From: Candidatus Woesearchaeota archaeon
GTDB lineage: Archaea > Nanobdellota > Nanobdellia > Pacearchaeales > GW2011-AR1
Assembly: GCA_964617015.1 (NCBI GenBank)
Contig: CAZTVG010000001.1
Span: forward strand, 46,584 to 110,583
Length of the DNA: 64,000 nt
Direction: 5' to 3'
A program made the translations under genes and the position numbers. The notes beneath the pieces are model-generated. The model ran no database searches and was not told where the DNA came from. It saw only the letters and a program-made list of their open reading frames with translations. Position 1 is the first letter of the stretch; each line of letters starts with the position of its first letter. Positions 4,148 to 52,490 of this stretch are shown in pieces.

Positions 4148-5818
4148 TCAGATTTTTTTTCTCGTGCTTATTATTTTTCCAAAATCAGATAATTTTTTAT
4201 TTTCATAAATAATTTTTCTAAAAATTTCTTTCAAATCTTTTATTTTAATTCTTATCTGATCTGTCGTATCTCTGTCACGGATTGTGGCGTCTTTTTTCTT
4301 TAGACTATCTTGGTCAATTGTTATGCAAAAAGGAGTTCCTATTTCATCATTTCGGGCATATCGTCTTCCTATGCTTCCTGACTTATCATAAATAACATTC
4401 CATTCTCTCCTTAAATCTTCAAAAATTTCCTTAGAAAGTTTTTCATACCTTTCTTTTTTTACAATCGGAAACACTGCTGCTTTTATCGGCGCAAGTTTTG
4501 GCTGCAGTTTTAACACCACATTTCCCCTTTCTTTATCATAAAAATAAGAGTCAAACATAAAAACCAAGAAAGCTCTTTCAACACCAAGGCTTGGCTCACA
4601 AATAACATGGGGGAGAATTTTGCCTTTTGAGATTTCATCAAAAATCTTTAAATCTTTTTTTGAAGATTTCTCATGCTGGCTCAAATCATAGTTTCCGCGG
4701 TCAGCAATTCCTTCAAGTTCTTTCCATCCAAAAGGAAAATTATATTCAATATCCCATGTATCTGTTGAATAATGTGAAAGCTCACTTTTAGGATGCTGTC
4801 TTATTCTGAAATTTTCAGAATTTGCTCCTAAATTAAGAAACCATGATAGTTCTGTCGCAAGCCAATAGGCATGCCAGTATTTTTTTATTATTCCTTTCTT
4901 TAAAGCATCTTTTATTTTCATTTTTACTGGCTCCTGATTTTTTTCCTGAGCTTCTGCAGAGTAAACAAAAATTTTCACATCAGGAATTTTATGAGAATGG
5001 GAACTTTCCTCGGGATTTATAAAATACTCTATTTCCATCTGCTCAAACTCTCTTGAACGAAATAAAAAATCTCTTGGAGCAATTTCATTCCTGAAAGCTT
5101 TTCCTATCTGTGCAATTCCAAAAGGAAGTTTCATTCTGGAGTTTTCATAAACAGATTTAAAGTTAGTAAAAATAAGTTGCGCTGTTTCTGGTCTGAGATA
5201 AGCTTTTCCTGATTCCCCAACGTTTGTTTCAAACATTAACTTAAATTCTTTTGCGGTTTTCTCGTCGTAATCCCCTCCGCAGAATTCACACTTGACTTTA
5301 CCAAGTTCATTTCTGTCAACTTTTCCCGGTTTTCTGCATTTCTTACATACAACAATTAAATCTGAAAAACTGTCTATATGCCCTGATGCTTCCCAGGTCT
5401 GAGGATGAGTTATAATAGAGCCATCAATTCCCACAATATCTTCTCTTCCTGTAACATGAAACTGCCACCACGCTTTCTTGATATTGTTTTTCATCTCAAC
5501 GCCAAGATGCCCGAAATCCCAGAATCCTGCAAAACCTCCGTAAATTTCTCCAGACTGATAAACAAAACCCCTTCTTTTGCAAAAAACTGCCATATCTTCA
5601 ATTGAAATTTTTGTTGGTTTTTCCTGAACAGGTTTCTTTTTTATTGGTTCCTTTTGTTTTGGTTTCTTAAGAATTTCTTTTGCTTTCTTCTCAGCTCCTT
5701 TTTTCGTTTTGCCAAGGTAAGCAATAGTCTTTGTCTTTACTTTACCATTCACTCTCTTATTTTCATTAAGATAGTAATATTCTCTGTCATGAATTTTTTT
5801 CTTAACAATAAATGCCAT
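4148..5818 (-). CDS. glyS: glycyl-tRNA synthetase (archaeal/eukaryotic type) with about 80-aa lysine-rich N-terminal extension
   Basis: Class II motifs, e.g. FGIAQIGKAFRNEIAPRDFLFRSREFEQMEIEYF. RRGFVYQSGEIYGG marks the GlyRS core start after a K-rich extension. Confidence 0.85.
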   Translation of the reverse strand: MAFIVKKKIHDREYYYLNENKRVNGKVKTKTIAYLGKTKKGAEKKAKEILKKPKQKEPIKKKPVQEKPTKISIEDMAVFCKRRGFVYQSGEIYGGFAGFWDFGHLGVEMKNNIKKAWWQFHVTGREDIVGIDGSIITHPQTWEASGHIDSFSDLIVVCKKCRKPGKVDRNELGKVKCEFCGGDYDEKTAKEFKLMFETNVGESGKAYLRPETAQLIFTNFKSVYENSRMKLPFGIAQIGKAFRNEIAPRDFLFRSREFEQMEIEYFINPEESSHSHKIPDVKIFVYSAEAQEKNQEPVKMKIKDALKKGIIKKYWHAYWLATELSWFLNLGANSENFRIRQHPKSELSHYSTDTWDIEYNFPFGWKELEGIADRGNYDLSQHEKSSKKDLKIFDEISKGKILPHVICEPSLGVERAFLVFMFDSYFYDKERGNVVLKLQPKLAPIKAAVFPIVKKERYEKLSKEIFEDLRREWNVIYDKSGSIGRRYARNDEIGTPFCITIDQDSLKKKDATIRDRDTTDQIRIKIKDLKEIFRKIIYENKKLSDFGKIISTRKKI

Positions 5819-5927: not shown

Positions 5928-7964
5928 TTATTGCCTGAACTTAAATCTAAGAAAGTCCTTTAATGATACCCCTGATTTCCTCATGTATCTGACAATAAAG
6001 AATATTGCCACAAGAACAACAACGACTATCAAGAATATGATGAATCCTCCTGCTCCTCCTTCTCCACCGAAGATTGCGAATCCTGCTGTAGGAGTTCCGC
6101 TTATAACAACTCTCTCCTGTACAGAAGCAGAATAAATCTCAGAGTTCAAATCTGCCACAAGCGTAAGTTCTCCTTCCAAGGCTTCATCTACAGGAACCAC
6201 AGCTAAAAATTCCTCAAGAGCATTTGCTGCAAGCGCCTGACTTGTACTAACTTCTGCCACCTTCTCGATATCTTTTAAAAGCGATAATCCAATTTCAACA
6301 TTTTGGTCTTCACCAGAAAGTTCTTCTAATGAATAAGTTACTTCAACTTCATTTTGTTCTGTTCTTTCAACACTAATTAATCCAAATTCTAATTTCTTTT
6401 CTACAACCTCAACAGTGAAAAGATCGGCTACGTCTGTGCCAGGACAGTCCAAAGATACACCTAAGCCGTAGGACCCTGCCGCAGTTCCCTCAGGAACAAC
6501 TACATCAAAGACAAAAGTGTGTTTTTCTCCTGCATTCAAATCAAGTGTTTCGGTATGACTTATCCATGAAGAAACTTCCCCTACACTTTCAAACAAGCAT
6601 GCTTGTAGCGGAAAAGTCAAAACGCTTTCAACGCTCCATGTAATTTCCCTAGTTTCACCAGGATTCATTGTCAAACTCTGAATGTCTTCTAATATTAACT
6701 TGACTATCTCGGTAACTTCTGTAGTTGTTCCTGTAATATTACTCTCTTCTGAAGTCTTCTCTGGACTGCTGGATGGAGGAGGAGTGTCTACTGAAAATGA
6801 AGATGACTGGTGGTCAGAAGCACCCAATGAGTTATTTGCGTATAGGTTGAATACATAGTTTCCGTCGTCTGAAACATCAAAACTACTGCTACCGCAACCA
6901 GGAAGAGTTGTATTGATTCCATTATTAATATTATACCAACAAGTTAGATTATTTCCTACCTTGGTAAAACTTATGGAGATTCCTGTTTGTGAAGATTTTA
7001 TTCCTGTTGGTTCAGATATATTCAAAGATACAATTCCGAGAGAAGAACCAACGACAACACTTTCTAAATAAGGGCTTAAACTTGAATCAGAGCTAGTGAA
7101 ATCAGCTTGATACTGGAAGTATCTTCCTTCAAGACCAATATTGGTTAAATCAGATACAGTAACAAAACTCTCATTAGCGCAATCCGAAGAAGAGCAAACT
7201 CTAACCTGAAAAGTCAAATCTGCGCCTGTCGGAACCTCTGCAAAAATATAATCAAATTCTTCTGCAGGAGCTACTCCAGAGCCAGCACCCTCTCCAAACC
7301 ACAAAGCATTTGTTGAATTTCCAAGATTCAAAGTTACTTCAATTAATTCTCCTGTATCAGAAGTTACTGTAAAAGTTCCTAAGGCATTATTTCCTGATGT
7401 GTCTGATTGAGCATAAACCCCGACAACTTCGCTTTTATTCATCTTTGCATATATATTCAATATACTTCCAGAAGTCAAGTCACTAGCAAAATCCAAATCA
7501 AAATTACTTGAGTTTGACATGTCTGCCAAATAATAAACATCATCCTGAGAAGCTACTTCGGTAACACTATTCCCGTTGTGGATTGCAGAAGTTAAAAATA
7601 CATTATAGCTTCCTGGAATTCCCCCCTGCCATATTAAACTATCCCACTGCATTGTTGAATTTGCATCAAAAATCTCAGAGGTGTATGTTCCTGTATTTTG
7701 ACCAGAACTTAAAACTACAGCACTGCCATTATATCCTACTCCTGTGTAACTTCCCTTATCAAAGTCACTCCGGTTTTGTTGTTCAAAAACTGCAAATCCT
7801 GTGAAACCCCTGTCGCCAAGAAAAAATAAAGCAAGTAAGACTACTGCAACGATAAGAAGACCTATAAGGATATGATTACCTACCCCTCTTTTCATACCCC
7901 CACCTGCTCCTCTTTTCATACCCTCCTTAGGTTTTTCTGGTTTAAAAAGTTTTTTGAAATCCAA
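5928..7964 (-). CDS. cell-surface protein, N-terminal TM/signal and C-terminal TM anchor
   Basis: 678 aa. N-terminal hydrophobic segment ILIGLLIVAVVLLALFF, Thr/Ser/Asn-rich ectodomain, C-terminal GG-rich plus TM anchor FIIFLIVVVVLVAIFFIV followed by basic tail. Confidence 0.55.
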   Translation of the reverse strand: MDFKKLFKPEKPKEGMKRGAGGGMKRGVGNHILIGLLIVAVVLLALFFLGDRGFTGFAVFEQQNRSDFDKGSYTGVGYNGSAVVLSSGQNTGTYTSEIFDANSTMQWDSLIWQGGIPGSYNVFLTSAIHNGNSVTEVASQDDVYYLADMSNSSNFDLDFASDLTSGSILNIYAKMNKSEVVGVYAQSDTSGNNALGTFTVTSDTGELIEVTLNLGNSTNALWFGEGAGSGVAPAEEFDYIFAEVPTGADLTFQVRVCSSSDCANESFVTVSDLTNIGLEGRYFQYQADFTSSDSSLSPYLESVVVGSSLGIVSLNISEPTGIKSSQTGISISFTKVGNNLTCWYNINNGINTTLPGCGSSSFDVSDDGNYVFNLYANNSLGASDHQSSSFSVDTPPPSSSPEKTSEESNITGTTTEVTEIVKLILEDIQSLTMNPGETREITWSVESVLTFPLQACLFESVGEVSSWISHTETLDLNAGEKHTFVFDVVVPEGTAAGSYGLGVSLDCPGTDVADLFTVEVVEKKLEFGLISVERTEQNEVEVTYSLEELSGEDQNVEIGLSLLKDIEKVAEVSTSQALAANALEEFLAVVPVDEALEGELTLVADLNSEIYSASVQERVVISGTPTAGFAIFGGEGGAGGFIIFLIVVVVLVAIFFIVRYMRKSGVSLKDFLRFKFRQ

Positions 7965-15546: not shown

Positions 15547-15618
15547 TTTAAAAAAATGCTCGTGAAGATACACTTCGCATAAAGGGAAAGTATGCTTGTG
15601 AAGATACACTTCGCATAA

Positions 15619-15691
15619 AGCGGAGGCTGGGATTCGAACCCAGGAATACTCGGGCTGCAACCGAGCGCGTTAACCACTTCGCCACCCCCGC
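15619..15691 (-). tRNA. tRNA-Cys (GCA)
   Basis: Minus-strand cloverleaf GCGGGGG-TG-GCGA..CGCG-CTCGG-TTGCAGC-CCGAG-TATTC-CTGGG-TTCGAAT-CCCAG-CCTCCGC-T. Confidence 0.8.
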
Positions 15692-15875: not shown

Positions 15876-16199
15876 ATGGATTTAAGCAAAAAGAAGTGTG
15901 TTCCATGTGAAAGCGAAACTTCTCCTATGAAAAAAACCTTAATTAAAAAATACCTAAAAAAAATTAAAAGATGGAGATTAAAGAAAGGAAAATTATACAA
16001 AGAATTTAAATTTAAAGATTTTAGAGAAACATTAAAATTTGTCAATAAAGTAGGAAAAATAGCTGAAAAAGAGGGGCATCATCCTGATACTTATTTCACA
16101 TGGGGCAAGTGCAATATTGAATTATACACCCATGCTATAAATGGATTAAGAGAAAATGATTTCATATTAGCTTCTAAAATTGACAAAATATCTTCCTAA
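15876..16199 (+). CDS. pterin-4a-carbinolamine dehydratase
   Basis: 107 aa. Signature EGHHPDTYFTWGKCNIELYTH. Confidence 0.75.
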   Translation: MDLSKKKCVPCESETSPMKKTLIKKYLKKIKRWRLKKGKLYKEFKFKDFRETLKFVNKVGKIAEKEGHHPDTYFTWGKCNIELYTHAINGLRENDFILASKIDKISS

Positions 16200-17098
16200 A
16201 TCTCAATGACCTCTAAATCATGCGCGAGAGAAGAATTCTTAAAGATTTTTTTGGCTTCATTCAGAATTTTTTCTGGTTTTCTGCTGTATCTTTGACTAAC
16301 GTGTGTCAATATAAGTTTCTTGGAATTTGATTTCTTGGCTATTTCTGCAGCCTGTTTTGCCGTCAGATGTTTATATTCCCTGGCCTTATTTTCAAGTTCT
16401 GAACCAAAACTTGCCTCACAAACCAGAATATCAGAATTTTTGACAAAGGGAGCTATTTTTTTGTTTATAGATGTGTCAAGAACAAAGGAAATCTTTTTCT
16501 CTTTTTCCTTAAAAGTTAAATTCTCTGCAAGATATTTTTTTCCCCTATAGGTCACATTCTTTCCTTCTTTCAGTCTTTTAATCAAAGGTCCATGAGGCAA
16601 TCCTGATTTCCTTAATTTTCTCTTGTCAACTCTTATTCGCCCTTTTTTGACAAAAGAGTACGCATTACACGGAACTTTGTGCGTCATTGATTCTGCTTTC
16701 AAATAAAAATCTTTAGTTTCAAAAAACTTTCTGGAAACTTCTTTAATATCCAAATGGAAGTATTTTTTTACTGCAAAAAGTTTCAAAAGCTCTTGCATAA
16801 AAAATTTGGTTTTCCTTGGTCCGTAGACAGAAAGTTTTTTGTTGTAACCACTCAGACCAAGAGTCTTTAAAAGTCCAGGGATTCCAAGTATATGGTCTGC
16901 GTGCCAGTGGGTGATCAAAATCCTTGTCAGCCTGCAGGGATTCAGTCTCGCTTTTCTGAATTGTCTCTGAGTTCCTTCACCACAATCAACAAGAATATTT
17001 TCCCCATTGTAAGTTAATAAAATTGCCGTATGGTTTCTCGTTGAAGTGGGAATTGCATCAGAAGTTCCAAGAAAAGTTAATTTTATCTTTTCTGTCAT
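16196..17098 (-). CDS. rnz: ribonuclease Z (tRNA 3' endonuclease, metallo-beta-lactamase fold)
   Basis: 300 aa. LTFLGTSDAIPT...ILITHWHADHILGIPGLL (HxHxDH motif). Confidence 0.8.
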   Translation of the reverse strand: MTEKIKLTFLGTSDAIPTSTRNHTAILLTYNGENILVDCGEGTQRQFRKARLNPCRLTRILITHWHADHILGIPGLLKTLGLSGYNKKLSVYGPRKTKFFMQELLKLFAVKKYFHLDIKEVSRKFFETKDFYLKAESMTHKVPCNAYSFVKKGRIRVDKRKLRKSGLPHGPLIKRLKEGKNVTYRGKKYLAENLTFKEKEKKISFVLDTSINKKIAPFVKNSDILVCEASFGSELENKAREYKHLTAKQAAEIAKKSNSKKLILTHVSQRYSRKPEKILNEAKKIFKNSSLAHDLEVIEI

Positions 17099-19055: not shown

Positions 19056-19529
19056 CTAAAGATTACTTTCAAACTCCATTAAACGGATAATGGTAGCCCC
19101 TAAAGGTACAACGCATTTCTCTGCCAATGGAAGCGCATAGACAAACCATCTTGGTATAACTAAAGTATCATATCTCACAGGCATTTTACTATCTTCTTGT
19201 TGGCGTTCACACACCAGTCGTTCATATGCCAATGCTAGCTTAAACTCATAAAAATCTTGGTGATTCATATGTTCTGCTACTCTTAAAGCATCATCTGCCA
19301 TTGGGCTTAATTCACACAGACCTTTTAACAAATTCTCTAAAGACCTAACATTATCAAGAAAAAACGTGTAATTACGCATTTCGAAATCATTCATCTCCCA
19401 GGGGTCTCCAAACAAATCAGAAGAGAGAAGCCAAGGATTCTCTCTCAATTTCCGTGCTAATTTAAATCGCTCTTCCGGCGTTATTTTCATTATGTTTAAC
19501 TTTTCTCCACTCATTGCTCGTCTGTACAA
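19056..19529 (-). CDS. hypothetical protein, compositionally atypical (Arg/Trp-rich, Lys-poor)
   Basis: 157 aa, no recognisable motif. Only about 6% Lys versus 12-15% in neighbouring proteins. Confidence 0.4.
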   Translation of the reverse strand: MYRRAMSGEKLNIMKITPEERFKLARKLRENPWLLSSDLFGDPWEMNDFEMRNYTFFLDNVRSLENLLKGLCELSPMADDALRVAEHMNHQDFYEFKLALAYERLVCERQQEDSKMPVRYDTLVIPRWFVYALPLAEKCVVPLGATIIRLMEFESNL

Positions 19530-19620
19530 AAATAGGTTTTTAATAATTATTCTTTACAATAATATACTTCAATTTCAAGATTCTAAAACTTTTTATAGAC
19601 TTATTTAGTGATATTTTTAT

Positions 19621-19704
19621 GTGGGGATGCCGGAGTGGTCAAACGGGCTGCGCTTAGGACGCAGTGGCTTAGTGCCTACGGGGGTTCGAATCCTCCTCTC
19701 CACA
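19621..19704 (+). tRNA. tRNA-Leu (UAG), long variable arm
   Basis: GTGGGGA-TG-CCGGAGTGGTCAAACGGG-CTGCG-CTTAGGA-CGCAG-TGGCTTAGTGCCTAC-GGGGG-TTCGAAT-CCTCC-TCTCCAC-A. Confidence 0.8.
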
Positions 19705-19715
19705 TTAAGACCTGT

Positions 19716-19755
19716 TAGCTTAGTGCGTACCTAGGTTCGAATCCTAGCTTCCGCA
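19716..19755 (+). other. diverged tRNA-Leu 3' half (variable arm + T-arm + acceptor 3' strand); preceding ATTAAGA resembles a UAA anticodon loop
   Basis: TAGCTTAGTGCGTAC-CTAGG-TTCGAAT-CCTAG-CTTCCGC-A aligns to the 3' 40 nt of the adjacent tRNA-Leu at about 75% identity with compensatory T-stem changes. No complementary 5' half (GCGGAAG...) was found in the window. Confidence 0.5.
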
Positions 19756-19773: not shown

Positions 19774-22700
19774 CTATCTGCATTCAAGGAATAAAGAGTA
19801 TATCTCATCCTTAAAACCAATTACATCTTCAACATACCTAATATTTCCTTTACTGCAATCAGTATTCCATCCATTATATCCTCTCAAAGCTCTTGTCCAG
19901 CCACTATAAGTTTTTCCATTGCAAACATACTCCTTAGAAGAAGAAACATGATTATTAATTAATAAATTAATTCCAAAATTCACATTTTCATCAAAATTTA
20001 ATTTTTCTCCATGCACATTTTTATTTATCTGCATAATTCCCAGACTCGTTCCTTCATCTCCCGCAAGGATTTCTGCTTTGTTATTTTCACAATAAAGAGG
20101 GTTATTGTTTTCATATGGACCTTGACAGTGCCTTATTCTGCTTTCAGTGTATGCGACCTGCAATACAAGACATTCAAAAGAGCTTGCTCCTGTATCTGCT
20201 TTGACAGAGGCATCATCAATTCCTCTTTGCTGTTTTATTTCAACTGCAAGCTCAATTATTTTTTTCCCTAAAACCTGCTGGCACTCTGTGGATGTTGAAC
20301 AAGTAAGTTTAATTTCTTCTCTAGACTCTCCAGCCTCAATATATTCTCTAGGACCTTCAAATGTAGAATCTATATCAAAAATAATTTCAGCGCCATCGTA
20401 AAATTGCTTTCCTTCCAAATTTTTAATTAAATCAATAAATTCAGATTCAGGTTTGGTTTTTTCGAAATCTCTTACGCTTTCTGTTTCAGGAACAAGCACC
20501 CAACTTATTATATCAAAAGACCATGTCCATTTTTTTAAATTATCATCAAATTTGAAATACAACTCCTCACCCGTTATAATGTCTTCAGTCACAATAAACA
20601 ATTTCTTATCAGTAAATTTAATCCTTTCTGTATATAATTCAGCATCATCAAAAAAACCACCTTCATCATTGAATCTAGTTCTTTCAATTAACAATCTTAA
20701 ACCGTCAGAATAAGTTTTGTCTTTTAACTGAATCAAAAACTTCTTTTCTTTTTCAGGAGCATTTATATAAGCTTCATCCACATTTAACCACGAATCTAGA
20801 TTATTTTTATTACTAGATACATGCCATTCTGTTCCAGAATAAGTATAGTAGAAATCCTGCCCAAAAACCACTCCATCTTCAAACAAAAATATGGGATAAC
20901 TAAGAAAACCGCTGATTAATCCTGCTTTAATTGCTTCTTCTCCTGTTATGCTTCCTTCTTGAAGTTTCTCTGCCAATGTTTTTTCTCCTTCTTCAATTTT
21001 ATCAATTTCTGGTTTGAGTTTTTCAAATGCAATAATAGCAAGGTCTGCATAAACATCTCCTCTCAAAAGTGTCAAATAACCCTTCTGACTGCCAAAGAAA
21101 ACCCTATCAATATTATCACTAATCAAATTTATTTTATTGAAGTTATCATCTTCAGAATCAATTTCCTCCAAAAGACTCTCGAAGTCTTCAACAAAACCAC
21201 CTTCTTTTTGAAGTGTTTCAATGTAATTAGGTGCAACTTTTCCAAGCACTTCGTTTTCAAGATTTGTATTTCTTAGAGTACTTTTTACACTGTCTGTGTC
21301 AAGCCAGCACTGAATCTTTGTGTTTCCGCAATTTCCAACAGGTTGCCATCTTCCCTTTTCTGTATTCGCAAGTACATCTGTTCCCAAACCTGGATTGGCT
21401 GTTGCACATATTCTTGTGATTCCGCGATTGTAAATAGCAGGATTTGTGACTTCTGTTACTCCAGCCTGCAAGTTAGGAGAAAGTAAACTGTAAATACTTG
21501 GAGTCCCTGAAACACATGCTGTTTCAGAAGTTATATCTTTCTGAGCAGCCTGAGAAGCGACATATTGTTCTGTGATATAATTTACTCCAAAAGATGTTGT
21601 AACTTGCTTAAAGCCACACTCTTCCTGACCATTGACGATTATACACATCTCCCGATAACCAGAAGGAGCTGTAATATCTCTTGTTTCAGTGAAAAAGTCT
21701 CCTGCCTTGATAAACCCTTGAGCAATTATTCTTCTTACACCAGTATCCTGGTAGAAAGAACCTCCTGTTCCTCTAAGATAAACTTGGTAATACGCTGGGA
21801 AATCTTTTCCTGCATAGATGTGGTAAAATACCTTGTATTGTGAGACAGGTGGAACAGTGGCTGTGGTGAAGGGAATCTCGTCAAATCTTCCATAAAATTG
21901 TGCAGGAGAATCAGGGGTTGTAAGAGCGTCAAAGAAATTTCCTCCAGAAGGCCCTGCAATAGAAACAAAATTCTTGCAGACAGCTGTTCCTACATCTTCT
22001 ACAGACCTTGCCTTGAATGCCCGGAAAGAGTTTGCAGCATAATACTGTGTAAAGTATCCTGTGGATTGTGAGGCAGTATCCCATGCATTTGCAACTCCAA
22101 GATACTCTCCTCCTCCACGAACATTTTGTCCAAGCACTGTTCCAAGTCCTTTGGTAAGCGCTATTTTTGCCAGTGGAATAGACTGTCTCCAGAAGAAATC
22201 ACACATGTATATGCTATTAATTTCATCACAAATTCCAGTTGTTTGCCCTGTATCTAAACTTGCCTGCAAACACTGCTGATAAGAATCAAAAACAGTCAAC
22301 AAGCCATCTATGCCTGCGTGAACTCCTGAAAGGCAGATAGGAATTTTTACCTCTGGAAAGTTTGGTAGGCACAAGGCCAAACTGCCTGCTATTCCAGACT
22401 GTATAACATCTTTAACAGGATATGCTCCGCCTAAATCACATCTTGAACTTGGGCATACAACAGGATCACAAACATTAAACAATAAATTACAATCTGTGGG
22501 AGACATAAAATCCTGGCATTGTATGTCTGGAATACCTATTGCAGGTTCTCCCACTTGAATTGACCGGCCAAGTATTTGTACTTTCCTAACTCCATCATGA
22601 TATCCTCTTTCAGCATCTGAAATTGCCCTTACTGCCTTAATTGCCAATGAAGATGATTTGCTTTTATCTAATCCTGGAAACTGATTGTAAGGTTGATTTG

Positions 22701-25700
22701 TCCCTGGATTTATCATTTCACAAGTATCATCACCTATTCCAGAATCAAACTCTGCTCTTCCATTTCTTCCCACATTGCAAAGCCAGAAACTTCGAACTAC
22801 TCCTGAAGCATCATAAGCTCTTATTGCCCCACCTATTGGTGTAGTTGGTTTAACATAAGCATACCAACCTTCTTTAACATTAAATGGAACAATTGCGGGA
22901 AATCCTGCGTAAATGCCTACCTCATAATATCTTACTCTTGGATTTACAAATTGATTTTGATAAGTTGTTGAATCATATCTTCTTAAAGCAAGTCCTAGAG
23001 GATTTATGTTATCTTCTTCTACAGGAGTCAAACTACCATCATTATTTATCCTGTAAGTTTGAGTTATTATGAAATTATTATTTAAAGTTAAAAGATATTC
23101 TTTTCCATCAGATTCGTCAAAAAATTTCTGGACAAATTCTTTATCTTCTATAGAATCACTCTTATAATTATTCCTTGCCCTTACTTCCTCAAATGTTTTA
23201 ACTTCAGTAATTGCATATTCCTTTAGTTTTTTAGTAGAGCCTATTATAACTGGACCACCATATTCACCTTCAAGAGTTTGTCTTTTGACATCTCTCTGTG
23301 TATTAACATAAATATCTGCAAGTTCTTTTTTGACTTCTGCCCGGGCAATTGCCCTTATTCTTTCATTTTCAGAATTCACAAGTCTTGAATTCAGCTGAAG
23401 ATTTCTTGCCTGTGTTAAAAATGAAGTGTCTGAATTTATTCTGGCAATTGCATCTGAAACAAGAACATCCTGATTTCCTATTTTAATTTTATCATTTTCA
23501 AAAACCCCTTTCAAATTATCACTTAATTCCTTGTTGAAATCACTATCAACATATTCTTTCAATACTTTTTCTGTATCTTCTCCAGCTTTCCCTAATTTTT
23601 CACGAATAGTTTTGAATTCCTGGTTTTGTTTTTCCATTCCTCCAAAGATAATGTCAATATCTGCATCTATTGCATCTGAATTATCAAGAAGACATGAATC
23701 CACGCTTCCATATGTTGCCATGGACTCTTTTTTATTGCAGAATTCAAACCACCCAGAGTCACCCCTCATGACATTCTGCCTTGCAATCCCCTTTCCTCCA
23801 AGATTTGAAAAGAAATTCTTTATAGTCAACGTGGTTCCGACCCCAAGACATGCAGCCTTTAGACTACTGACAACTGTTCCGAGCTTCCCATTTATATCCT
23901 GCCATTTTTCTAAAGTTTTATTTAAAGATTCAATTCTTTCTCTTGTTTTTTCAGGGGATAACTGAATTCCTCTTTTTTCAATTCCTATCTTAAATCTAAA
24001 TGGAACACTTGTTCTTGCGTAATTTATTTTTGGATTTATTGAGACTTTTGCCAGTTTCTTTAGGTTAACTTCAAGAAGTGTAAATTTATATTTGCTTCCA
24101 AAACTTTCCGGGAAGTTTTTGTTTAATCTTTTAGTAGAAGTTCCCAGAATAAAAGCTTTTGTAGCTTCTGTTGTGCTTCTTTCTATCTGAAGATTAACTC
24201 TTACTGTAGCTGTTGCCTCCCTGTCTAAATCATCTCTGCGCAAATCCAAAAGCTGGATGAATTCGTCTTTGCTTAAATGATTAATGCTATTCTTCCTAAG
24301 AGTTATTTTATAAGGGCTTCCTTCCGGAGGACTGACTAATATTTCTGCCGAAAACTCGTCAAGAGATGGCTCTCTTATTCTGTCAAAAACAATTCTGTAG
24401 GTTCGTCCATCAATCAAAACGTCTCTGACTGCACTTTCAGTGCTTGAAAGCTTGTAAGCATTTCTACAAATATCAGTCACAACAGAATCAGGATAACTAT
24501 CCCTGAATTCATCACATAACTCAATAGCTGTTCTTTTTTGTCCTGTTAACCACGCAAGTTCTATTTTTGAAAATAAAGCCGCTTCACCAAGAGTTTCTGT
24601 TAGTTCCCCAAAAGATTCTTCCTGGGGAAAACTTGCAATAACAGTATCATAATCTCTTTCTGCTTTCCCATAAAAATTACTGACATCTGCTGACAAGGAT
24701 GAAATGTCTGAATCCTGTGCTTCTGCAAAACCAACAATAGCAAGAGTTTTTCCAAAAACCTTTTCTGACTCTCTGAAAGAAACAGATTCAAATGATTGTC
24801 CTGAAAGAAATCTGAGCCCTTTTTCTACACTTGAAAAAGCACCCTTAAACCCTTCCTTGATTAACTGATTCAAGTTGTCTATGTTTGAAGAAGGGAATCT
24901 GTTTACAAATCCACCAATAGAATTTAATACATTTTCTGTTAAAGCTTCTCCCTGGCCAGGCATGGAAACAGTAACAATAAATAAATTTTGTTCAGCTGTG
25001 CCAATGCCTTCTGTTCCAACATATGCGAGATAAACTGATTTCTCAGTTTCCTTACCTTTTTCAATCTCCTGGTAAAGTCTGTCCCCAACACTAACTTCAA
25101 TTGGTTTTCCTTCTATTTTCAGGTTTATTTTCGGATTGATTGTCATATCAAAAACACCCCTTCTCACATCTTCCCTGCAGCTAATCCTGACTCCCTCATT
25201 TACACCGTTTTTAATTATTCTTGTTACCTGACACTTGTTTTCAAGGAATCTTTCTCCTTCCTTGACCTCGACAACATCTTCATTTATTCTTAATTTTGCC
25301 CTTGTGTTTGGATTTTCCAAACCATTTAGCCTAACCTGCATTGACCCAAGACAATAATTAAAGCCAGGCATGAAAATTTCCCTTGATGTTTCGCCTACAT
25401 TAAGATTCACAGTCTGAAGTTTTCTTTTTACACCTGAAGTCCCAGAGCCATAGGTCTCTCTGTCAGAATAAATTGAAATTGATGCACCTAGATTATCAAT
25501 TGAATCTGCTCTCAGATACCCCTTACCTCTCCAAAAGCCATACTGACGGAAATTTTCCTCCCACTGCTCATCACTTAATTCAGGAAGGTAAAAATTAGCT
25601 CTTCCCACACCAAAAGCATTTTTTACATCATACCTTATTGTTGCTGTTAAATTTCCCAGAATAAATTCAGGCATTGCAGATTCATTTGCCTGCCTTCTCA

Positions 25701-26184
25701 GGACTATGACCGCATAACCTATGTTATTCAAAACAGGCTGGTTAAGCTGGGCACCATATCTCCCCAAGGCAGCTCTTGCAGGCACATAAGTCACTCCAAC
25801 AACTTCTTTAGGTTTTGGTCCTGCAAAAGAAAAAATAATATTATTAATGGCTTCAATTTTTATCAAAGGATTTAATTGTGTTGCAACTATTGGACAAAAA
25901 ACAGGAACGTTCTGATCTTCAAGGAGGTCGCTTCTTACAACAGATGGCTCACAACCCAAAGGGTTAACCTGAAGAATAAAATCCTGTCCTGCTTCACACA
26001 TGCTTCTGTCAAATAAAGGAAACTGCAAATCTCCCTGGAAAGGAACAAAAGTCGGGTAATAAGCAACATTGGAACGTGAGTAAGTATTGCTAGCACCACT
26101 GAAAATTTGCGATGAAATTAAAGATAATGCAAATACAATTCCAATTAATAATAAAATTCCGATTACTATTTGTTTTTTCTTCAT
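19774..26184 (-). CDS. giant secreted protein (2136 aa) with N-terminal signal/TM, central Cys-rich region and C-terminal lytic transglycosylase (SLT/lysozyme-like) domain
   Basis: N-terminus MKKKQIVIGILLLIGIVFALSLI. C-terminal 130 aa carry SLT family motifs AYTES (catalytic Glu-Ser), GIMQIN (GLMQ motif) and ALRGYNGW (AYNxG motif). Confidence 0.7.
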   Translation of the reverse strand: MKKKQIVIGILLLIGIVFALSLISSQIFSGASNTYSRSNVAYYPTFVPFQGDLQFPLFDRSMCEAGQDFILQVNPLGCEPSVVRSDLLEDQNVPVFCPIVATQLNPLIKIEAINNIIFSFAGPKPKEVVGVTYVPARAALGRYGAQLNQPVLNNIGYAVIVLRRQANESAMPEFILGNLTATIRYDVKNAFGVGRANFYLPELSDEQWEENFRQYGFWRGKGYLRADSIDNLGASISIYSDRETYGSGTSGVKRKLQTVNLNVGETSREIFMPGFNYCLGSMQVRLNGLENPNTRAKLRINEDVVEVKEGERFLENKCQVTRIIKNGVNEGVRISCREDVRRGVFDMTINPKINLKIEGKPIEVSVGDRLYQEIEKGKETEKSVYLAYVGTEGIGTAEQNLFIVTVSMPGQGEALTENVLNSIGGFVNRFPSSNIDNLNQLIKEGFKGAFSSVEKGLRFLSGQSFESVSFRESEKVFGKTLAIVGFAEAQDSDISSLSADVSNFYGKAERDYDTVIASFPQEESFGELTETLGEAALFSKIELAWLTGQKRTAIELCDEFRDSYPDSVVTDICRNAYKLSSTESAVRDVLIDGRTYRIVFDRIREPSLDEFSAEILVSPPEGSPYKITLRKNSINHLSKDEFIQLLDLRRDDLDREATATVRVNLQIERSTTEATKAFILGTSTKRLNKNFPESFGSKYKFTLLEVNLKKLAKVSINPKINYARTSVPFRFKIGIEKRGIQLSPEKTRERIESLNKTLEKWQDINGKLGTVVSSLKAACLGVGTTLTIKNFFSNLGGKGIARQNVMRGDSGWFEFCNKKESMATYGSVDSCLLDNSDAIDADIDIIFGGMEKQNQEFKTIREKLGKAGEDTEKVLKEYVDSDFNKELSDNLKGVFENDKIKIGNQDVLVSDAIARINSDTSFLTQARNLQLNSRLVNSENERIRAIARAEVKKELADIYVNTQRDVKRQTLEGEYGGPVIIGSTKKLKEYAITEVKTFEEVRARNNYKSDSIEDKEFVQKFFDESDGKEYLLTLNNNFIITQTYRINNDGSLTPVEEDNINPLGLALRRYDSTTYQNQFVNPRVRYYEVGIYAGFPAIVPFNVKEGWYAYVKPTTPIGGAIRAYDASGVVRSFWLCNVGRNGRAEFDSGIGDDTCEMINPGTNQPYNQFPGLDKSKSSSLAIKAVRAISDAERGYHDGVRKVQILGRSIQVGEPAIGIPDIQCQDFMSPTDCNLLFNVCDPVVCPSSRCDLGGAYPVKDVIQSGIAGSLALCLPNFPEVKIPICLSGVHAGIDGLLTVFDSYQQCLQASLDTGQTTGICDEINSIYMCDFFWRQSIPLAKIALTKGLGTVLGQNVRGGGEYLGVANAWDTASQSTGYFTQYYAANSFRAFKARSVEDVGTAVCKNFVSIAGPSGGNFFDALTTPDSPAQFYGRFDEIPFTTATVPPVSQYKVFYHIYAGKDFPAYYQVYLRGTGGSFYQDTGVRRIIAQGFIKAGDFFTETRDITAPSGYREMCIIVNGQEECGFKQVTTSFGVNYITEQYVASQAAQKDITSETACVSGTPSIYSLLSPNLQAGVTEVTNPAIYNRGITRICATANPGLGTDVLANTEKGRWQPVGNCGNTKIQCWLDTDSVKSTLRNTNLENEVLGKVAPNYIETLQKEGGFVEDFESLLEEIDSEDDNFNKINLISDNIDRVFFGSQKGYLTLLRGDVYADLAIIAFEKLKPEIDKIEEGEKTLAEKLQEGSITGEEAIKAGLISGFLSYPIFLFEDGVVFGQDFYYTYSGTEWHVSSNKNNLDSWLNVDEAYINAPEKEKKFLIQLKDKTYSDGLRLLIERTRFNDEGGFFDDAELYTERIKFTDKKLFIVTEDIITGEELYFKFDDNLKKWTWSFDIISWVLVPETESVRDFEKTKPESEFIDLIKNLEGKQFYDGAEIIFDIDSTFEGPREYIEAGESREEIKLTCSTSTECQQVLGKKIIELAVEIKQQRGIDDASVKADTGASSFECLVLQVAYTESRIRHCQGPYENNNPLYCENNKAEILAGDEGTSLGIMQINKNVHGEKLNFDENVNFGINLLINNHVSSSKEYVCNGKTYSGWTRALRGYNGWNTDCSKGNIRYVEDVIGFKDEIYSLFLECR

Positions 26185-26185
26185 C

Positions 26186-26338
26186 TTATTTCTTTTTTGA
26201 TTTTTTTATTTCTTCCTTTGCTTCTGGAAAAATGCTTCCAGTGTATCCGCATTTCCTGCATTCCATCATTCCTATATTTCCTCCTGCAACTAAATCCAGT
26301 TCCCTGCCCTTGCATCTCGGACAAAATTTTATTTTCAT
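26186..26338 (-). CDS. 50-aa zinc-ribbon protein (MKIKFCPRCKGRELDLVAGGNIGMMECRKCGYTGSIFPEAKEEIKKSKKK), not in ORF track
   Basis: Two CxxC pairs (CPRC, CRKC). Stop lies 2 nt before the giant gene ATG, between the 607-aa gene and the giant gene on the same strand. Confidence 0.5.
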   Translation of the reverse strand: MKIKFCPRCKGRELDLVAGGNIGMMECRKCGYTGSIFPEAKEEIKKSKKK

Positions 26339-26461
26339 TTTTAATTTAAACCAATTGCATTTTGCTTAATTTTAATCTCAAATTATTATCTGTTAATTCT
26401 TTTTTATCGGCTATTAACTTCATCTTGTGTAGCCCATATACATTAATATTTTTCATCATTA

Positions 26462-28285
26462 TCATCTAAAATTTATATCAAGTCCTTTAGTTTCAAACAA
26501 TAAGTAGTTGGTTTCAAGTTTTTCAAGAGTGTCTGGTTTAGAAAGACTTTCTGCATTTATTTCAATAGTGCCGGAGTTTATCAATTCAGACTCTAAAATG
26601 AAATAATTTTGTTTTCCGCCTCCTGCTAAAGCATTTGAAATTAACTGCTCTGGGACTTCAATATCAAAACACCTCTCCTTTGTCACGCCAAACACCCCAA
26701 GGATTCCTGATTTTGGAACTTTTACGCACTGCTCTGTTGTTGTCGCTCCTATATTTATTGAGGAACTCCTGTAAATATAAACCTGAATCTCATACTGATC
26801 TTCGCCCAATTCAACTGTTCTTTGTTCAGGATAAGCAATTGTTTTTGTTGAATCCGATGAAATAAAATGAATTATTGAATTTCCGCTGTAACTTGCTCCA
26901 TCAAGTTTCAAATCAATATTTTTCGTGTAAAGCTTGTCAAGAATAATATCTATGTTTCCAGAAGAAACAGTAGAAAATAAATATCTTGCATCTTTAAATC
27001 CGTCGGCTCTCGCATGGACATAACCATTCACACATTGCGGAAAATTTTCTCTGAGTGCTCCAAAACTTGTCTCTCCTATATTGCATTTATTTCCTAAACA
27101 TTCATAAGAAATTTCTGCATCAACAGATCTTCCTTGTCTGTCTCTTGTGTTCACCTGAATTTCTGCATTTTTATATAAGCAAAGCTCTGGAACAACATTT
27201 TCAATCGCAGTTGCATTCAAAGACTCACGTGGATTATTATTTTGTAAAACAACAGCCATCGGAAACTGGAAAATCTCATCTCCATCAGAAACCTGTACTA
27301 AAACAGGATATTTTATACTGTAAACAAAATGATAAGGAACATAACAAAATCCAATAATTCCCAAACCAGGCTGGTTTCCCACAGGATTTGAAATCAAAAT
27401 GATTCCTTCAGAAGGCGAAACTTCAAAACTATTCGGCCAGTTTCGAGAATTCAGGAACCTTACTTCTTCTTCCACAGGCAAATCAACCTTAAAGTAATCA
27501 TCACTATCTACTCCTGTTTCAATTGCCAGTGTATTTGCCTCAATAGCTTCCTGAAGCTCATCAAAAACCTTATTGGCATTCCAGACTAAAGGACTGCATG
27601 TAAGTTCAACGCCGTCAACAGGAGCATATGATCTCAGTGTATCAACAGCATATTCTTCAAGAAACAGAGTTTCCTGTTCATGTTCATAAACTTTTACTGC
27701 AGAATCATATAAATTTCCTAGCTTTGATTTGACCACAATCTTATGATTTTTTACAGTGGCAGATTCATTGCCAAAAACTATATTCAAATTCATACTCAAA
27801 TCAATCTCAACCTCATCATCTTTAATATTAGAGCTTGCCTCGGGTTCTGCCAGAGAAATTTCAAATCCCTGTTCATAATAATCATTAAAATTGCAGTCAT
27901 TAATCCTTTCTTCAATGAACTCTTCAAGCTGAGTTTCCATCTCCTTTTTAGTGGGAACCTGTTCTTTTTGGATGTTGTTTCCAGAAACATAATACCAGTA
28001 AGGAATAGGATTTCCCAAAAAATTCAGTTGAGAGGAAAAAGGCATATATTGGGAACCTGGTTCAAATTCCGGCAGAAAAATATAACCTCCCTGGGATTCC
28101 AGAATGCCTGCCCCCACAGATGTATCTTCTTCAAGACAAGCCAAGAAAGCTGTATAAACAGGTTCAATATTTGCAGGTAAATCAATACTTATTAAAGAAC
28201 CTCTTAAAATAAAATAAGAAAGAACTCCTGCGAGAATAAGTATGGCAATTATAATAAATATGGTCACCTGCCCTTTATTTTTCAT
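26462..28285 (-). CDS. 607-aa exported protein with type IV pilin-like (class III) signal peptide
   Basis: N-terminus MKNKGQVTIFIIIAILILAGVLSYF (K-G-Q then hydrophobic helix, as in archaeal prepilins). Large Cys-containing extracellular domain. Confidence 0.55.
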   Translation of the reverse strand: MKNKGQVTIFIIIAILILAGVLSYFILRGSLISIDLPANIEPVYTAFLACLEEDTSVGAGILESQGGYIFLPEFEPGSQYMPFSSQLNFLGNPIPYWYYVSGNNIQKEQVPTKKEMETQLEEFIEERINDCNFNDYYEQGFEISLAEPEASSNIKDDEVEIDLSMNLNIVFGNESATVKNHKIVVKSKLGNLYDSAVKVYEHEQETLFLEEYAVDTLRSYAPVDGVELTCSPLVWNANKVFDELQEAIEANTLAIETGVDSDDYFKVDLPVEEEVRFLNSRNWPNSFEVSPSEGIILISNPVGNQPGLGIIGFCYVPYHFVYSIKYPVLVQVSDGDEIFQFPMAVVLQNNNPRESLNATAIENVVPELCLYKNAEIQVNTRDRQGRSVDAEISYECLGNKCNIGETSFGALRENFPQCVNGYVHARADGFKDARYLFSTVSSGNIDIILDKLYTKNIDLKLDGASYSGNSIIHFISSDSTKTIAYPEQRTVELGEDQYEIQVYIYRSSSINIGATTTEQCVKVPKSGILGVFGVTKERCFDIEVPEQLISNALAGGGKQNYFILESELINSGTIEINAESLSKPDTLEKLETNYLLFETKGLDINFR

Positions 28286-28857: not shown

Positions 28858-29898
28858 ATGCGCGAAGATAGACGAATTAAATTGAAAAAATGGCAACAAA
28901 GAGGATTAATTTTAAACGCTGCAAAAAAAACTAGTTCCATTAAGCAACTTAGTATTAAAATCAAAGTTCCTTATTCAACCTTAAAAAAATATGCTCAAGA
29001 AGTTTTCTTACTGCCAGAAAATGTATTCAAAAAACTTATAGGTTTATCCTCTATTAAAGAAGAAGAATTAGAAATTACTTACCTATCAAACAATTGGGGA
29101 AAGATAATTGGAGGAAAAAAAGGTATGGAAACTATTCAAAAAAAATATCCTGAAAAAATTTTAGAATGGAGAAAAAAAGCAATTAGAAAATCTCATTTAA
29201 ATAATGCAAAGAAAATTAAAATACCCCCTCTTAATGAAAAATTGGCTGAATTAGTTGGAGTTTATTTAGGAGATGGGACACTAACAAAATATTTTATTAG
29301 AATATCTGGAGATTGTAGATATGACATTCCCTACTTCAAGTACTTATCAGAAGTCATATATGAGCTCTTTAGCATAAACCCCTCAATTAGAAAGGAAAAA
29401 AATAGAAATACATTGTACTTAACAATACTCTCTAAAAATGTTTGTTCTTTTTTAAATAAAAATTTTGGTTTAAGATATGGTCATAAAATAAAGAATAAAA
29501 CATGCATACCAAAAAAAATTTTAGAAGATGAAAAATTATCAATTGCTTGTTTTAGAGGACTCATTGATACAGATGGTTCCATATCCAGAAGAGGTAGAAG
29601 GGGGGGCCAGTTTTGTATTCAGTTTACATCCCATAACAAAGAACTACTAAAACAAGTTCATGAGATAGGAAAAAAAATAGAAGTATTTACTTTCGGAGAT
29701 AAAACAGGATCTGGAACGAACAAACAAGAAAATATACTCAAATTCTTTAAAATTGTGGGAAGTTCTAACTTAAGGCATATTGTAAGATTCCATCAAAGAT
29801 TTTACAAGAATAAAACACTTTATCAAAGAGATGTATTAAAGCATTATGAAAAACCTTTTTATATTAATCTAACCCTTCCATTTAAGGTGGCCTTGTAA
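28858..29898 (+). CDS. free-standing LAGLIDADG-family endonuclease-like protein with N-terminal HTH
   Basis: 346 aa. Two LAGLIDADG motifs, LAELVGVYLGDGTL and FRGLIDTDGSI. Very AT-rich gene. Stop codon overlaps the 5' end of a tRNA-Val-like element. Confidence 0.6.
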   Translation: MREDRRIKLKKWQQRGLILNAAKKTSSIKQLSIKIKVPYSTLKKYAQEVFLLPENVFKKLIGLSSIKEEELEITYLSNNWGKIIGGKKGMETIQKKYPEKILEWRKKAIRKSHLNNAKKIKIPPLNEKLAELVGVYLGDGTLTKYFIRISGDCRYDIPYFKYLSEVIYELFSINPSIRKEKNRNTLYLTILSKNVCSFLNKNFGLRYGHKIKNKTCIPKKILEDEKLSIACFRGLIDTDGSISRRGRRGGQFCIQFTSHNKELLKQVHEIGKKIEVFTFGDKTGSGTNKQENILKFFKIVGSSNLRHIVRFHQRFYKNKTLYQRDVLKHYEKPFYINLTLPFKVAL

Positions 29899-29961
29899 GC
29901 TAGTGGTAAACTGTATCCTTGACGTGGATGAATCCCCAGTTCGATTCTGGGCGGGGCCATT
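29889..29961 (+). tRNA. tRNA-Val (GAC)-like; 3' two-thirds canonical, 5'/D-arm non-canonical
   Basis: Anticodon arm TATCC-TTGACGT-GGATG, T-arm CCCAG-TTCGATT-CTGGG, acceptor 3' CGGGGCC-A. The 5' strand GGCCTTG pairs with two GU, and the D-arm cannot be folded canonically. Confidence 0.45.
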
Positions 29962-36701: not shown

Positions 36702-37265
36702 TCACTTCTCAATCACTTCCGCCTTGTCGTCATCAATAAGGATTTTGGCAATTTCCCTAGAAATATTTGCAATCTGACCTTTTTCAAAAGGACCAATTTT
36801 TTCTCCTTCCAAATCCAAGAATTCTCCAACATCCTTCTTAAAAATAACCAACTCATTTTTTGAGTTTCCTTCTTTCTTCCCGCTTAAAAGTTCATTAAGT
36901 TTTTTGTCAGAACTTTCCATGTTTTTCATCAGGGCTTCAAACAAAGATTTTTCAAAAGAAAGCATATTATCAAAATCCTGCTTTGAAATTCCTGTTTCTG
37001 CAGCAATTAAAACAAGATTCAGGATTTTCTTCCTCCTCCTTGTCATTAGCTCCCTGAAGAGAGTCACAGCGTTTTCCAGTTGTTTTTTTGTCTTGGCAAT
37101 CATGTCTGAGAAAATATTATCCTCTTTTGAAGCCATCTCTCTTTTTTCCTTGAGATATCCTGCAACTTCTGTAATAAAATTCTTTAGTAAAGGCTGTAAC
37201 TGATCAGAATATCTCTCTTTTCTTGTTGCCTCATAAAGATCACTATAAGTTATCATAAAAAACAT
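36702..37265 (-). CDS. GINS subunit (Gins51/Gins15-like)
   Basis: 187 aa. SDLYEATRKERYSDQLQPL resembles the GINS A-domain hallmark. Confidence 0.4.
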   Translation of the reverse strand: MFFMITYSDLYEATRKERYSDQLQPLLKNFITEVAGYLKEKREMASKEDNIFSDMIAKTKKQLENAVTLFRELMTRRRKKILNLVLIAAETGISKQDFDNMLSFEKSLFEALMKNMESSDKKLNELLSGKKEGNSKNELVIFKKDVGEFLDLEGEKIGPFEKGQIANISREIAKILIDDDKAEVIEK

Positions 37266-52369: not shown

Positions 52370-52490
52370 TGCCCTTACGAGGATTTGAACCCCGGTCTCA
52401 AGCTATTCGCGAGCTCATTCATTACTGATTCAAATTCTCACAAAACAACTCACCGCAAGCTTGTGTTCTGTCCGGCTGAACTACAAGGGC
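52370..52490 (-). tRNA. tRNA-Arg (GCG) with 48-nt intron after position 37
   Basis: Minus strand GCCCTTG-TA-GTTC..GAAC-A-CAAGC-TTGCGG-[48 nt]-A-GCTTG-AGAC-CGGGG-TTCAAAT-CCTCG-TAAGGGC-A. The intron contains CGCG that can pair with the anticodon region. Confidence 0.65.

Follow-up and report, generated by a model that had tools for sequence, protein, structure and literature searches.

The 51 nucleotides that lie directly behind the tRNA-Leu(UAG) gene of this strain (19705..19755, + strand) are probably a non-functional relic of allele replacement, in which one tRNA-Leu(UAG) gave way to another. The relic is a 5'-truncated tRNA-Leu that extends from U33 to A73, as deduced from the register of a tandem repeat, the match to a truncated tRNA model and homology. 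It was found in a 64-kb stretch of DNA with a G+C content of 34% (in the following "the window", to which all coordinates refer). What defines a gene fragment or pseudogene is present here: the sequence is a truncated homologue of a gene that is intact in relatives, and it carries changes that are not tolerated in working copies.

The gene in front of the relic is a complete, intron-less tRNA-Leu(UAG) (19621..19704, + strand), as had been claimed in the first-pass annotation of this DNA. It is recognized by ARAGORN and by Rfam RF00005 (53.2 bits), and the cloverleaf is its minimum-free-energy fold. Its stems are GTGGGGA/TCTCCAC (acceptor), CTGCG/CGCAG (anticodon) and GGGGG/CCTCC (T stem), the discriminator is A73, and CCA is not encoded. 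The putative promoter of the gene is the archaeal BRE/TATA-like sequence TTCTAAAACTTTTTATA (19581..19597, + strand), which was read from the sequence and ends 24 nt upstream of the tRNA-Leu start; the same motif is also found upstream of the syntenic tRNA-Leu genes in the related loci L014, L013 and L021. Positions 8-57 of the working gene (50 nt, including the CTGCG/CGCAG stem) are identical to the tRNA-Leu(UAG) of L009 (GCA_026002795.1), and its variable arm is also identical to the L009 type. In its promoter, the window is similar to L014 and not to L009.

A repeat search revealed that gene and relic form a head-to-tail tandem of a 51-nt unit in exact register (19654-19704 and 19705-19755), with 71% identity between the two units (36/51). 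U33 of the fragment abuts A73 of the complete gene with zero bases between them, and the 12-nt spacer that had been proposed between gene and fragment does not exist, the repeat unit starting directly at 19705. On the + strand, the relic begins with TTAAGA, the remnant of the anticodon loop, followed by CCTGT as the 3' strand of the anticodon stem, the variable arm (19716-19730), the T arm (19731-19747), the 3' strand of the acceptor stem, CTTCCGC (19748-19754), and the discriminator A (19755). Over the final 40 nt, an identity of about 75% to the neighbouring tRNA-Leu had been noted, and indeed 30/40 positions are identical; likewise, the T stem is changed on both strands with pairing kept, from GGGGG/CCTCC in the gene to CTAGG/CCTAG in the fragment, and the T arm of the fragment folds as a hairpin. 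Infernal aligned the fragment alone (19705-19755) to positions 32-71 of the tRNA model as a 5'-truncated match with 18.8 bits and an E value of 0.057. The relic is devoid of tRNA positions 1-32 and of a promoter of its own, and the folding energy of the fragment is no better than that of shuffled sequence (z -0.17 and -0.76).

The arrangement is not an assembly artefact, because tRNA and fragment are arranged identically in three independent assemblies that read through the site. The fragment is the same, base for base, in the window and in L001, L002 and L003, which are independent assemblies of the same strain, and L004 stops inside the fragment. The working gene has a T-stem polymorphism in two same-strain assemblies and the fragment is invariant in all of them; since these assemblies are at least 99.5% identical overall, the identity of the fragment among them is uninformative with respect to constraint.

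Which gene does the fragment descend from? Judged from the alignments, its homology to tRNA-Leu is far beyond chance, since 47/51 positions of the whole fragment are identical to an intact tRNA-Leu(UAG) of a relative (L021). From CCTGT to the end, 42/45 positions are identical to the tRNA-Leu(UAG) of L021 and, equally, to that of L014, the closest relative of this strain (TFB 93% identical). The fragment is thus far nearer to the genes of L021 and L014 than to its own neighbour (36/51). The four differences to L021 are a G36-to-A change, which turns TTAGGA into TTAAGA, a T-to-G change in the variable arm, and, in the acceptor strand, two changes side by side that convert TCTCCGC into CTTCCGC. 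The A that gives the loop its UAA look was located at 19708 (+ strand) by alignment to the UAG relatives. The CCTGT strand of the anticodon stem goes together with the anticodon TAG in 14/14 distinct tRNA-Leu genes (taken from the matches listed and from the relatives, with no tRNA-Leu(UAA) of Pacearchaeota among them). Since every sampled CCTGT-type tRNA-Leu from DPANN reads UAG, the apparent UAA would most simply result from one G36-to-A substitution.

The change in the variable arm concerns a pair that is otherwise strictly kept. In the relic, A19717 and G19727 (19717..19727, + strand) face each other as an A.G mismatch; in the 133 other tRNA-Leu 3' halves with which it was compared, the equivalent pair is G-C in 76 and A-T in 57, a clean covariation. 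Among all 137 sequences, A.G occurs only in the relic, that is in the window and in L001, L002 and L003. The relic therefore has two changes that are absent from functional copies, the A.G in the variable arm and an anticodon position that is unlike that of all CCTGT-type genes.

The acceptor strand of the relic, CTTCCGC, is two bases off those of L014 and L021 and corresponds to a type, GCGGAAG/CTTCCGC, that is widespread in DPANN. When metagenomes were scanned for GCGGAAG followed by the D arm of the clade, the predicted 5' partner of the fragment, all matches listed were complete genes of other organisms, among them at least 120 tRNA-Leu genes of DPANN with the anticodons AAG, CAA, UAG and GAG. 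With at least 120 complete genes having this acceptor, CTTCCGC is simply a common acceptor type, which does not single out one parent of the relic. A scan of genome contigs for a UAA-type anticodon arm together with the variable arm, by a pattern that misses intron-containing genes, returned only a tRNA-Leu(UAA) from Hydrothermarchaeales. As anticodon stem and variable arm of that tRNA are the same as in the relic, the parent may have been a tRNA-Leu(UAA).

The loci of relatives were collected via TFB proteins and via an ORF of 152 aa that adjoins the tRNA. The genes that flank the tRNA in the window encode RNase Z, LSm, ribosomal protein S8e and TFB, and the best matches to TFB are from Pacearchaeota (DPANN), with 80-93% identity. 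Every relative examined has one tRNA-Leu(UAG) just behind TFB, which is either contiguous or has a cis-intron: the gene is intron-less in L006, L009, L015, L016, L018 and L021 and has a 37/38 intron (15 to ~88 nt) in L011, L013 and L014. In its intron mode, ARAGORN called a "Leu(taa)" in L011, L013, L014 and L037; these calls arise from misplaced introns, and the loops read CTTAGG with a 37/38 intron. Among 150 tRNA-Leu-like 3' halves in 950 kb of related loci, only those of this strain include an extra 3' half behind a complete tRNA, and the fragment was not found in any relative examined. The tRNA-Leu locus is generally unstable in the clade: anticodon stems vary (ACAGG, TCAGG, CTGCG, CGAGA), introns come and go, and the orientation of the gene flips.

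The 152-aa ORF (19056..19514, - strand) is divergent from the tRNA-Leu promoter and has no match to Pfam or PHROG. In L021, a homologue that is 61% identical is likewise divergent from the adjoining tRNA-Leu(UAG), which is complete, of the ACAGG/CCTGT type and not followed by a fragment. We considered that the ORF could be an integrase or another mobile-element gene and dismissed this; Pfam and PHROG give no match, and of its homologues, just five in all, one adjoins a normal tRNA-Leu(UAG).

On the other side, the tRNA locus is convergent with an operon (19774..28285, - strand) that encodes a giant protein of 2136 aa (19774-26184, - strand) and, behind it, a protein of 607 aa (26462-28285, - strand). 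Orthologues are found in the same order in two other Pacearchaeota, L009 and L013: the giant protein is 44% identical to the protein at the same position in L009 and 43% to that of L013, the 607-aa protein is 57% identical to its counterpart in L009, and both relatives share the gene order TFB, tRNA-Leu, giant protein, about 610 aa, tRNA-Val. In the left flank, the genes for RNase Z, LSm, S8e and TFB are conserved throughout the relatives. The first-pass annotation had offered the fragment as the attachment-site remnant of an integrative element, with the giant-protein operon as island cargo. Because the operon is orthologous and in the same order in relatives, it is not island cargo. An integrase and a matching direct repeat at the far side of the 19.8-28.3 kb operon, to which that annotation had pointed as a check, were searched for and not found. 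There is no integrase between 19.0 and 29.9 kb by Pfam and PHROG, with none for the giant ORF in its precomputed Pfam record; the ORF at the far side of the operon (28858-29898) is LAGLIDADG-like. Neither of the two tRNA 3' ends recurs in the 64-kb window with up to 3 mismatches, except at the 3' end of tRNA-Cys (15619-15634) and at 4684-4699, the latter likely a chance match. We also looked for carriage by viruses or mobile elements and rejected it: neither the fragment nor either allele type was found on viral contigs of IMG/VR.

These findings are best explained by allele turnover at a single locus. The ancestral gene would have been a tRNA-Leu(UAG) of the ACAGG/CCTGT, CTAGG/CCTAG type, as it is found at this locus in the closest relatives, and the likely ancestral state is that of L021, in which the 152-aa ORF stands beside a complete ACAGG/CCTGT gene with nothing behind it. 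A different tRNA-Leu(UAG) allele, with CTGCG/CGCAG, would then have become the working gene in this strain. The most economical path leads through a transient state with two copies of tRNA-Leu(UAG) at the locus, the second of which may stem from recombination with foreign or paralogous DNA; none of the loci examined shows such an intermediate with both copies complete. We infer that a deletion, starting immediately downstream of the new copy, then removed the redundant one as far as its anticodon loop. With the part of the old gene 5' of U33 lost, the discriminator of the working gene would have been joined straight to the old U33. Later substitutions would have given the relic its false UAA (G36 to A) and unpaired its variable arm.

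What happens to the relic in the cell? Behind it comes the T-rich tail that belonged to the old gene, so that transcription of the working tRNA probably runs on through the relic as a 3' trailer, which RNase Z would remove and which would then be degraded. A suitable enzyme is predicted in the window, an RNase Z-like metallo-beta-lactamase (16196..17098, - strand) with the motif HxHxDH in its translation and with the Lactamase_B Pfam assigned to its syntenic orthologues; it would be expected to cut after A73 and thereby to free the relic as a trailer.

Archaea are well known to carry partial tRNA genes that recombination has left behind (PMC9897764, PMC3293823). The relic described here is best seen as an ordinary scar of gene turnover within this class, with the small twist that it involves two alleles and that there is no element between them. 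As in the partial tRNA genes of the Thermococcaceae type (PMC9897764), what is retained is the 3' portion from anticodon loop to discriminator; it shares its strand and its isotype with a complete gene and is probably not functional. However, the textbook examples are near-identical direct repeats that flank an element of 9-23 kb with an integrase (PMC9897764), whereas here the two copies are only 71% alike, touch each other and belong to two different alleles, with no element. The tRNA-Thr fragment in the Caldiarchaeum subterraneum population (Sugahara et al. 2012, PMC3293823) is similar in that a fragment of one allele is found beside a complete, different allele, which was read as turnover by recombination. 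That fragment is a 5' piece, located 1.8 kb upstream, with a recombinase-encoding insertion in between; here, it is a 3' piece, located directly downstream, with no insertion.

A recurrence of tRNA ends was seen elsewhere in DPANN. In 12/104 tRNA-Leu genes, the last 12 nt of the gene are repeated within 600 nt downstream, with 0 cases in the upstream control and 0 in the reverse-complement control. Many of these repeats close a conserved, unannotated element of about 70-110 nt, which is also found behind tRNA-Gly(UCC), tRNA-Arg(CCU) and tRNA-Arg(UCU), where it stands singly or in tandem arrays of up to three; in most copies, the final 13-19 nt repeat the 3' end of the tRNA upstream. The element has no match in Rfam, and RNAalifold predicts one hairpin with a compensatory change in 7/13 pairs. 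This shows that tRNA 3' ends are prone to recombination in the group. The 64-kb window contains no copy of the element, and the fragment in the window is not explained by it.

The second reading of the first-pass annotation was that the fragment is the 3' half of a split tRNA-Leu(UAA), and we looked for a 5' half in several ways. It had been stated that no complementary 5' half (GCGGAAG...) exists in the window. A tRNA-like 5' half is indeed absent, but the heptamer itself does occur once, at 36716-36722 on the minus strand; this site was rejected as a 5' half, as it lacks a D arm and is part of a coding sequence that is closed by a stop codon. A looser pattern that tolerates G.U pairs (GYGGRRG ... 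RYRGG NT) gave nothing tRNA-like in the 64-kb window. At 51440-51530 (minus strand), ACAGGATTAAGT is accompanied, 46 nt upstream, by a 12-mer that is complementary to the relic leader with one mismatch; we call this a chance match, because it is inside an ORF of 503 aa and neither an acceptor nor a D arm stands at the proper distance. Outside such chance matches in coding sequence, the window contains no complement of the sequence upstream of the relic. We also considered a tRNA made of the 5' half of the working gene and the relic, with the first 3' part as an intron. The acceptor would form only with three G.U pairs and one mismatch, and the anticodon stem fails, CTGCG and CCTGT giving one Watson-Crick and two wobble pairs out of five. 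A permuted tRNA was discarded as well; there is no 5' half downstream, and the stop codon of the giant gene is only 19 nt away.

A functional 3' half would have to be made as the trailer of tRNA-Leu(UAG), be freed by RNase Z or EndA, and be joined by EndA and RtcB to a distant 5' half. We regard this as extremely unlikely, although several observations speak in its favour: nothing is damaged in the T arm, the acceptor strand or the discriminator A, TTAAGA can be read as a UAA loop, and split tRNAs occur in the related Nanoarchaeum. UUA is the commonest leucine codon in the sampled ORFs (116/372), so that a UAA decoder is needed, and there is none in the window; nor does UAA occur in any of the at least 120 tRNA-Leu genes of the GCGGAAG type from DPANN among the matches listed. 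The endA gene that had been reported is present (1246-1761; 68% identical to the Pfam-annotated EndA of a relative), 37/38 introns are common in the clade, and the window itself has a tRNA-Arg(GCG) with an intron of ~48 nt (52370-52490). Like the split tRNAs of Nanoarchaeum equitans and Caldivirga maquilingensis (PMC3218864, PMC4033280), the relic stands alone as a 3' half, its T arm and acceptor strand are intact, and the organism has a splicing endonuclease. However, those halves are conserved and have a promoter of their own, their GC-rich leader and the trailer of the 5' half are complementary, and the genome has no contiguous gene for the same tRNA; promoter, leader and conservation were looked for here and not found. 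As the fragment directly abuts another tRNA, it has neither a promoter of its own nor a leader that could form a bulge-helix-bulge, the upstream sequence being the complete tRNA only; by homology the junction is at 32/33, with no recognizable bulge-helix-bulge. Not all helices are intact, the A.G in the variable arm standing against Watson-Crick pairs in 133/133 other sequences, the nearest homologues read UAG, no 5' half is found within 64 kb, and the arrangement is restricted to one strain, whereas relatives have contiguous or cis-intron genes. Finally, a recent survey of 208 complete Nanobdellota genomes found tRNA-Leu in each of them, and the missing tRNAs that it flagged as possible split genes are those for Trp and Val (10.64898/2026.05.13.725050). 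If the split reading were true, Pacearchaeota would gain their first split tRNA, and a 3' half that is expressed by piggy-backing on another tRNA gene would be without precedent.

A better case, yet still an unlikely one, can be made for a scar of integration, in which an element with a tRNA-Leu-like attachment site was inserted by a tyrosine integrase in the anticodon loop and was later lost, the displaced 3' part being left next to the restored gene. The fragment extends exactly from the anticodon loop to the 3' end (U33 to A73, in register), the classic extent of a tRNA attachment core; 8 nt, CTTAGGAC, are common to both allele types and could be the overlap region; 3'-end repeats are found at or near the locus in L014, L006 and L011, in line with the recombination-prone tRNA 3' ends of DPANN (12/104 tRNA-Leu with their own end repeated downstream, controls 0); and the class as such is supported by the literature (PMC9897764, PMC3293823). 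However, if the anticodon loop or T loop had been the site of a simple crossover, either a chimeric working gene or a displaced part that fits its 5' half would be expected, and neither is seen: the working gene is self-consistent, the partial copy is only 71% identical to it, and the relic does not pair with the 5' half of the working gene, the stems being incompatible. Between the copies there are zero bases instead of an integrase-bearing element, no element or integrase is present between 19.0 and 29.9 kb and no second copy of the repeat in the window, no viral contig has either allele type or the fragment, and the region on both sides is not accessory, with the left flank and the operon being conserved core synteny. 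A very small probability is given to a third possibility, that the fragment is kept for another role, as a structured trailer that aids RNase Z or the termination of the convergent transcripts, as a stable tRNA-derived small RNA, or as a decoy for integrases. It differs from intact homologues at only 4/51 positions, and this low divergence may reflect constraint instead of youth; the T-arm hairpin is intact, and all assemblies of the strain agree in the fragment, while the T stem of the working gene is polymorphic in two of them. On the other hand, assemblies that are at least 99.5% identical say nothing on constraint, the folding energy is at the level of shuffled sequence, and the fragment is absent from every relative examined. 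The relic of allele turnover is thus our preferred reading. In summary, the earlier view of the fragment as a remnant of recombination at a tRNA gene holds with respect to the general class, the foreign 3' part and the intact T arm; both specific forms that it had been given, attachment site and split half, are not supported.

For annotation, the 51 nt should be entered as a tRNA-Leu gene fragment (pseudogene). They should not be counted as a decoder of UUA, and the fragment is unsuited to delimit an island, the giant-protein operon being part of the vertically inherited core synteny of Pacearchaeota. The element of 70-110 nt that is often found behind DPANN tRNA genes is the more promising lead and merits a study of its own. 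With respect to the evolution of tRNAs, the locus is a small, clean case of allele turnover, in which two distinct tRNA-Leu(UAG) alleles are present at one locus, one of them truncated. Turnover of alleles at this site fits the fast change of the tRNA-Leu gene, in anticodon stems, introns and orientation, that is seen among close relatives.

Copies of tRNA-Leu 3′ ends are found behind the genes themselves in several DPANN genomes. In 12 of 104 DPANN tRNA-Leu genes, the gene's own last 12 nt recur with at most one mismatch within 600 nt downstream; the upstream and the reverse-complement controls each gave none. The copies lie in L014, the closest relative (TFB 93% identical), and in the metagenome loci L023, L024, L026, L042, L073, L084, L088, L102, L104, L116 and L131. 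The duplicated stretch extends at least 30–45 nt beyond the tRNA-Leu end in L073, L102, L104 and L023. In another relative, L011, an intron-containing tRNA-Leu(CAG) of 137 nt (L011:10976-11165) lies directly behind TFB, and its last 9–10 nt are repeated about 45 nt downstream (GCTCCTGCA).

On DPANN contigs outside the window, genes for tRNA-Leu-UAG, Leu-AAG, Gly-UCC, Arg-CCU and Arg-UCU are directly followed by one to three tandem copies of a conserved element some 70–110 nt long (L014:7499-7599, L116:629-725, L073:4624-4736, L104:6053-6256 and 6413-6739, L114:35-141, L037:9061-9142). Its core reads ...GATGAGAACCCNNGGGTTCGACGAGCRATTTCGTGGTAGAAA...TTCGTGCGAGNTNGGGAGC, one predicted hairpin has compensatory changes, and most copies terminate in a 13–19-nt copy of the 3′ end of the preceding tRNA. 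The element has no match in Rfam; a miniature integrative element, a proto-intron and an unknown small RNA are all conceivable identities.

Within the window, the 3′ end of tRNA-Cys (15619-15691, minus strand) is immediately followed by a 34-nt unit that occurs twice in tandem (15551-15620; 91% identical, 36-nt period), each copy with a possible small hairpin (GAAG...CTTC). At 28858-29898 on the plus strand there is a free-standing ORF of 346 aa that resembles LAGLIDADG-type homing endonucleases (PF14528, E 2.4e-10) and whose end runs into the start of tRNA-Val (29888-29960). Rfam detected an intron-containing tRNA-Arg(GCG) (52370-52490, minus strand; intron about 48 nt long, at 37/38) that ARAGORN missed in default mode.

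Most DPANN tRNA-Leu genes with a GCGGAAG acceptor have the anticodon AAG (at least 79 ARAGORN calls among the listed matches from L023-L142), in the loop TTAAGGC; A34 in tRNA-Leu is unusual for archaea. None of the more than 120 genes listed combined this acceptor and D arm with a UAA anticodon.

In L003 (4028 region) and L004, two assemblies of the window's strain made independently, the working tRNA-Leu(UAG) (window 19621-19704, plus strand) has C to A at window position 19694 in the T stem (CCTCC to CATCC), leading to a G52·A62 mismatch; the relic abutting this gene (19705-19755) is unchanged. Pacearchaeota vary in the orientation of the tRNA-Leu(UAG) behind TFB: some have the gene on the opposite strand and others on the same one, with L009:10978-11061, L016:2790-2875 and L017:2251-2336 contrasting with the window, L006, L013-L015 and L018. 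Close relatives also differ in its anticodon stem and in its intron, which measures 0, 15 or about 86–88 nt. Turnover of the tRNA-Leu locus behind TFB is unusually fast.
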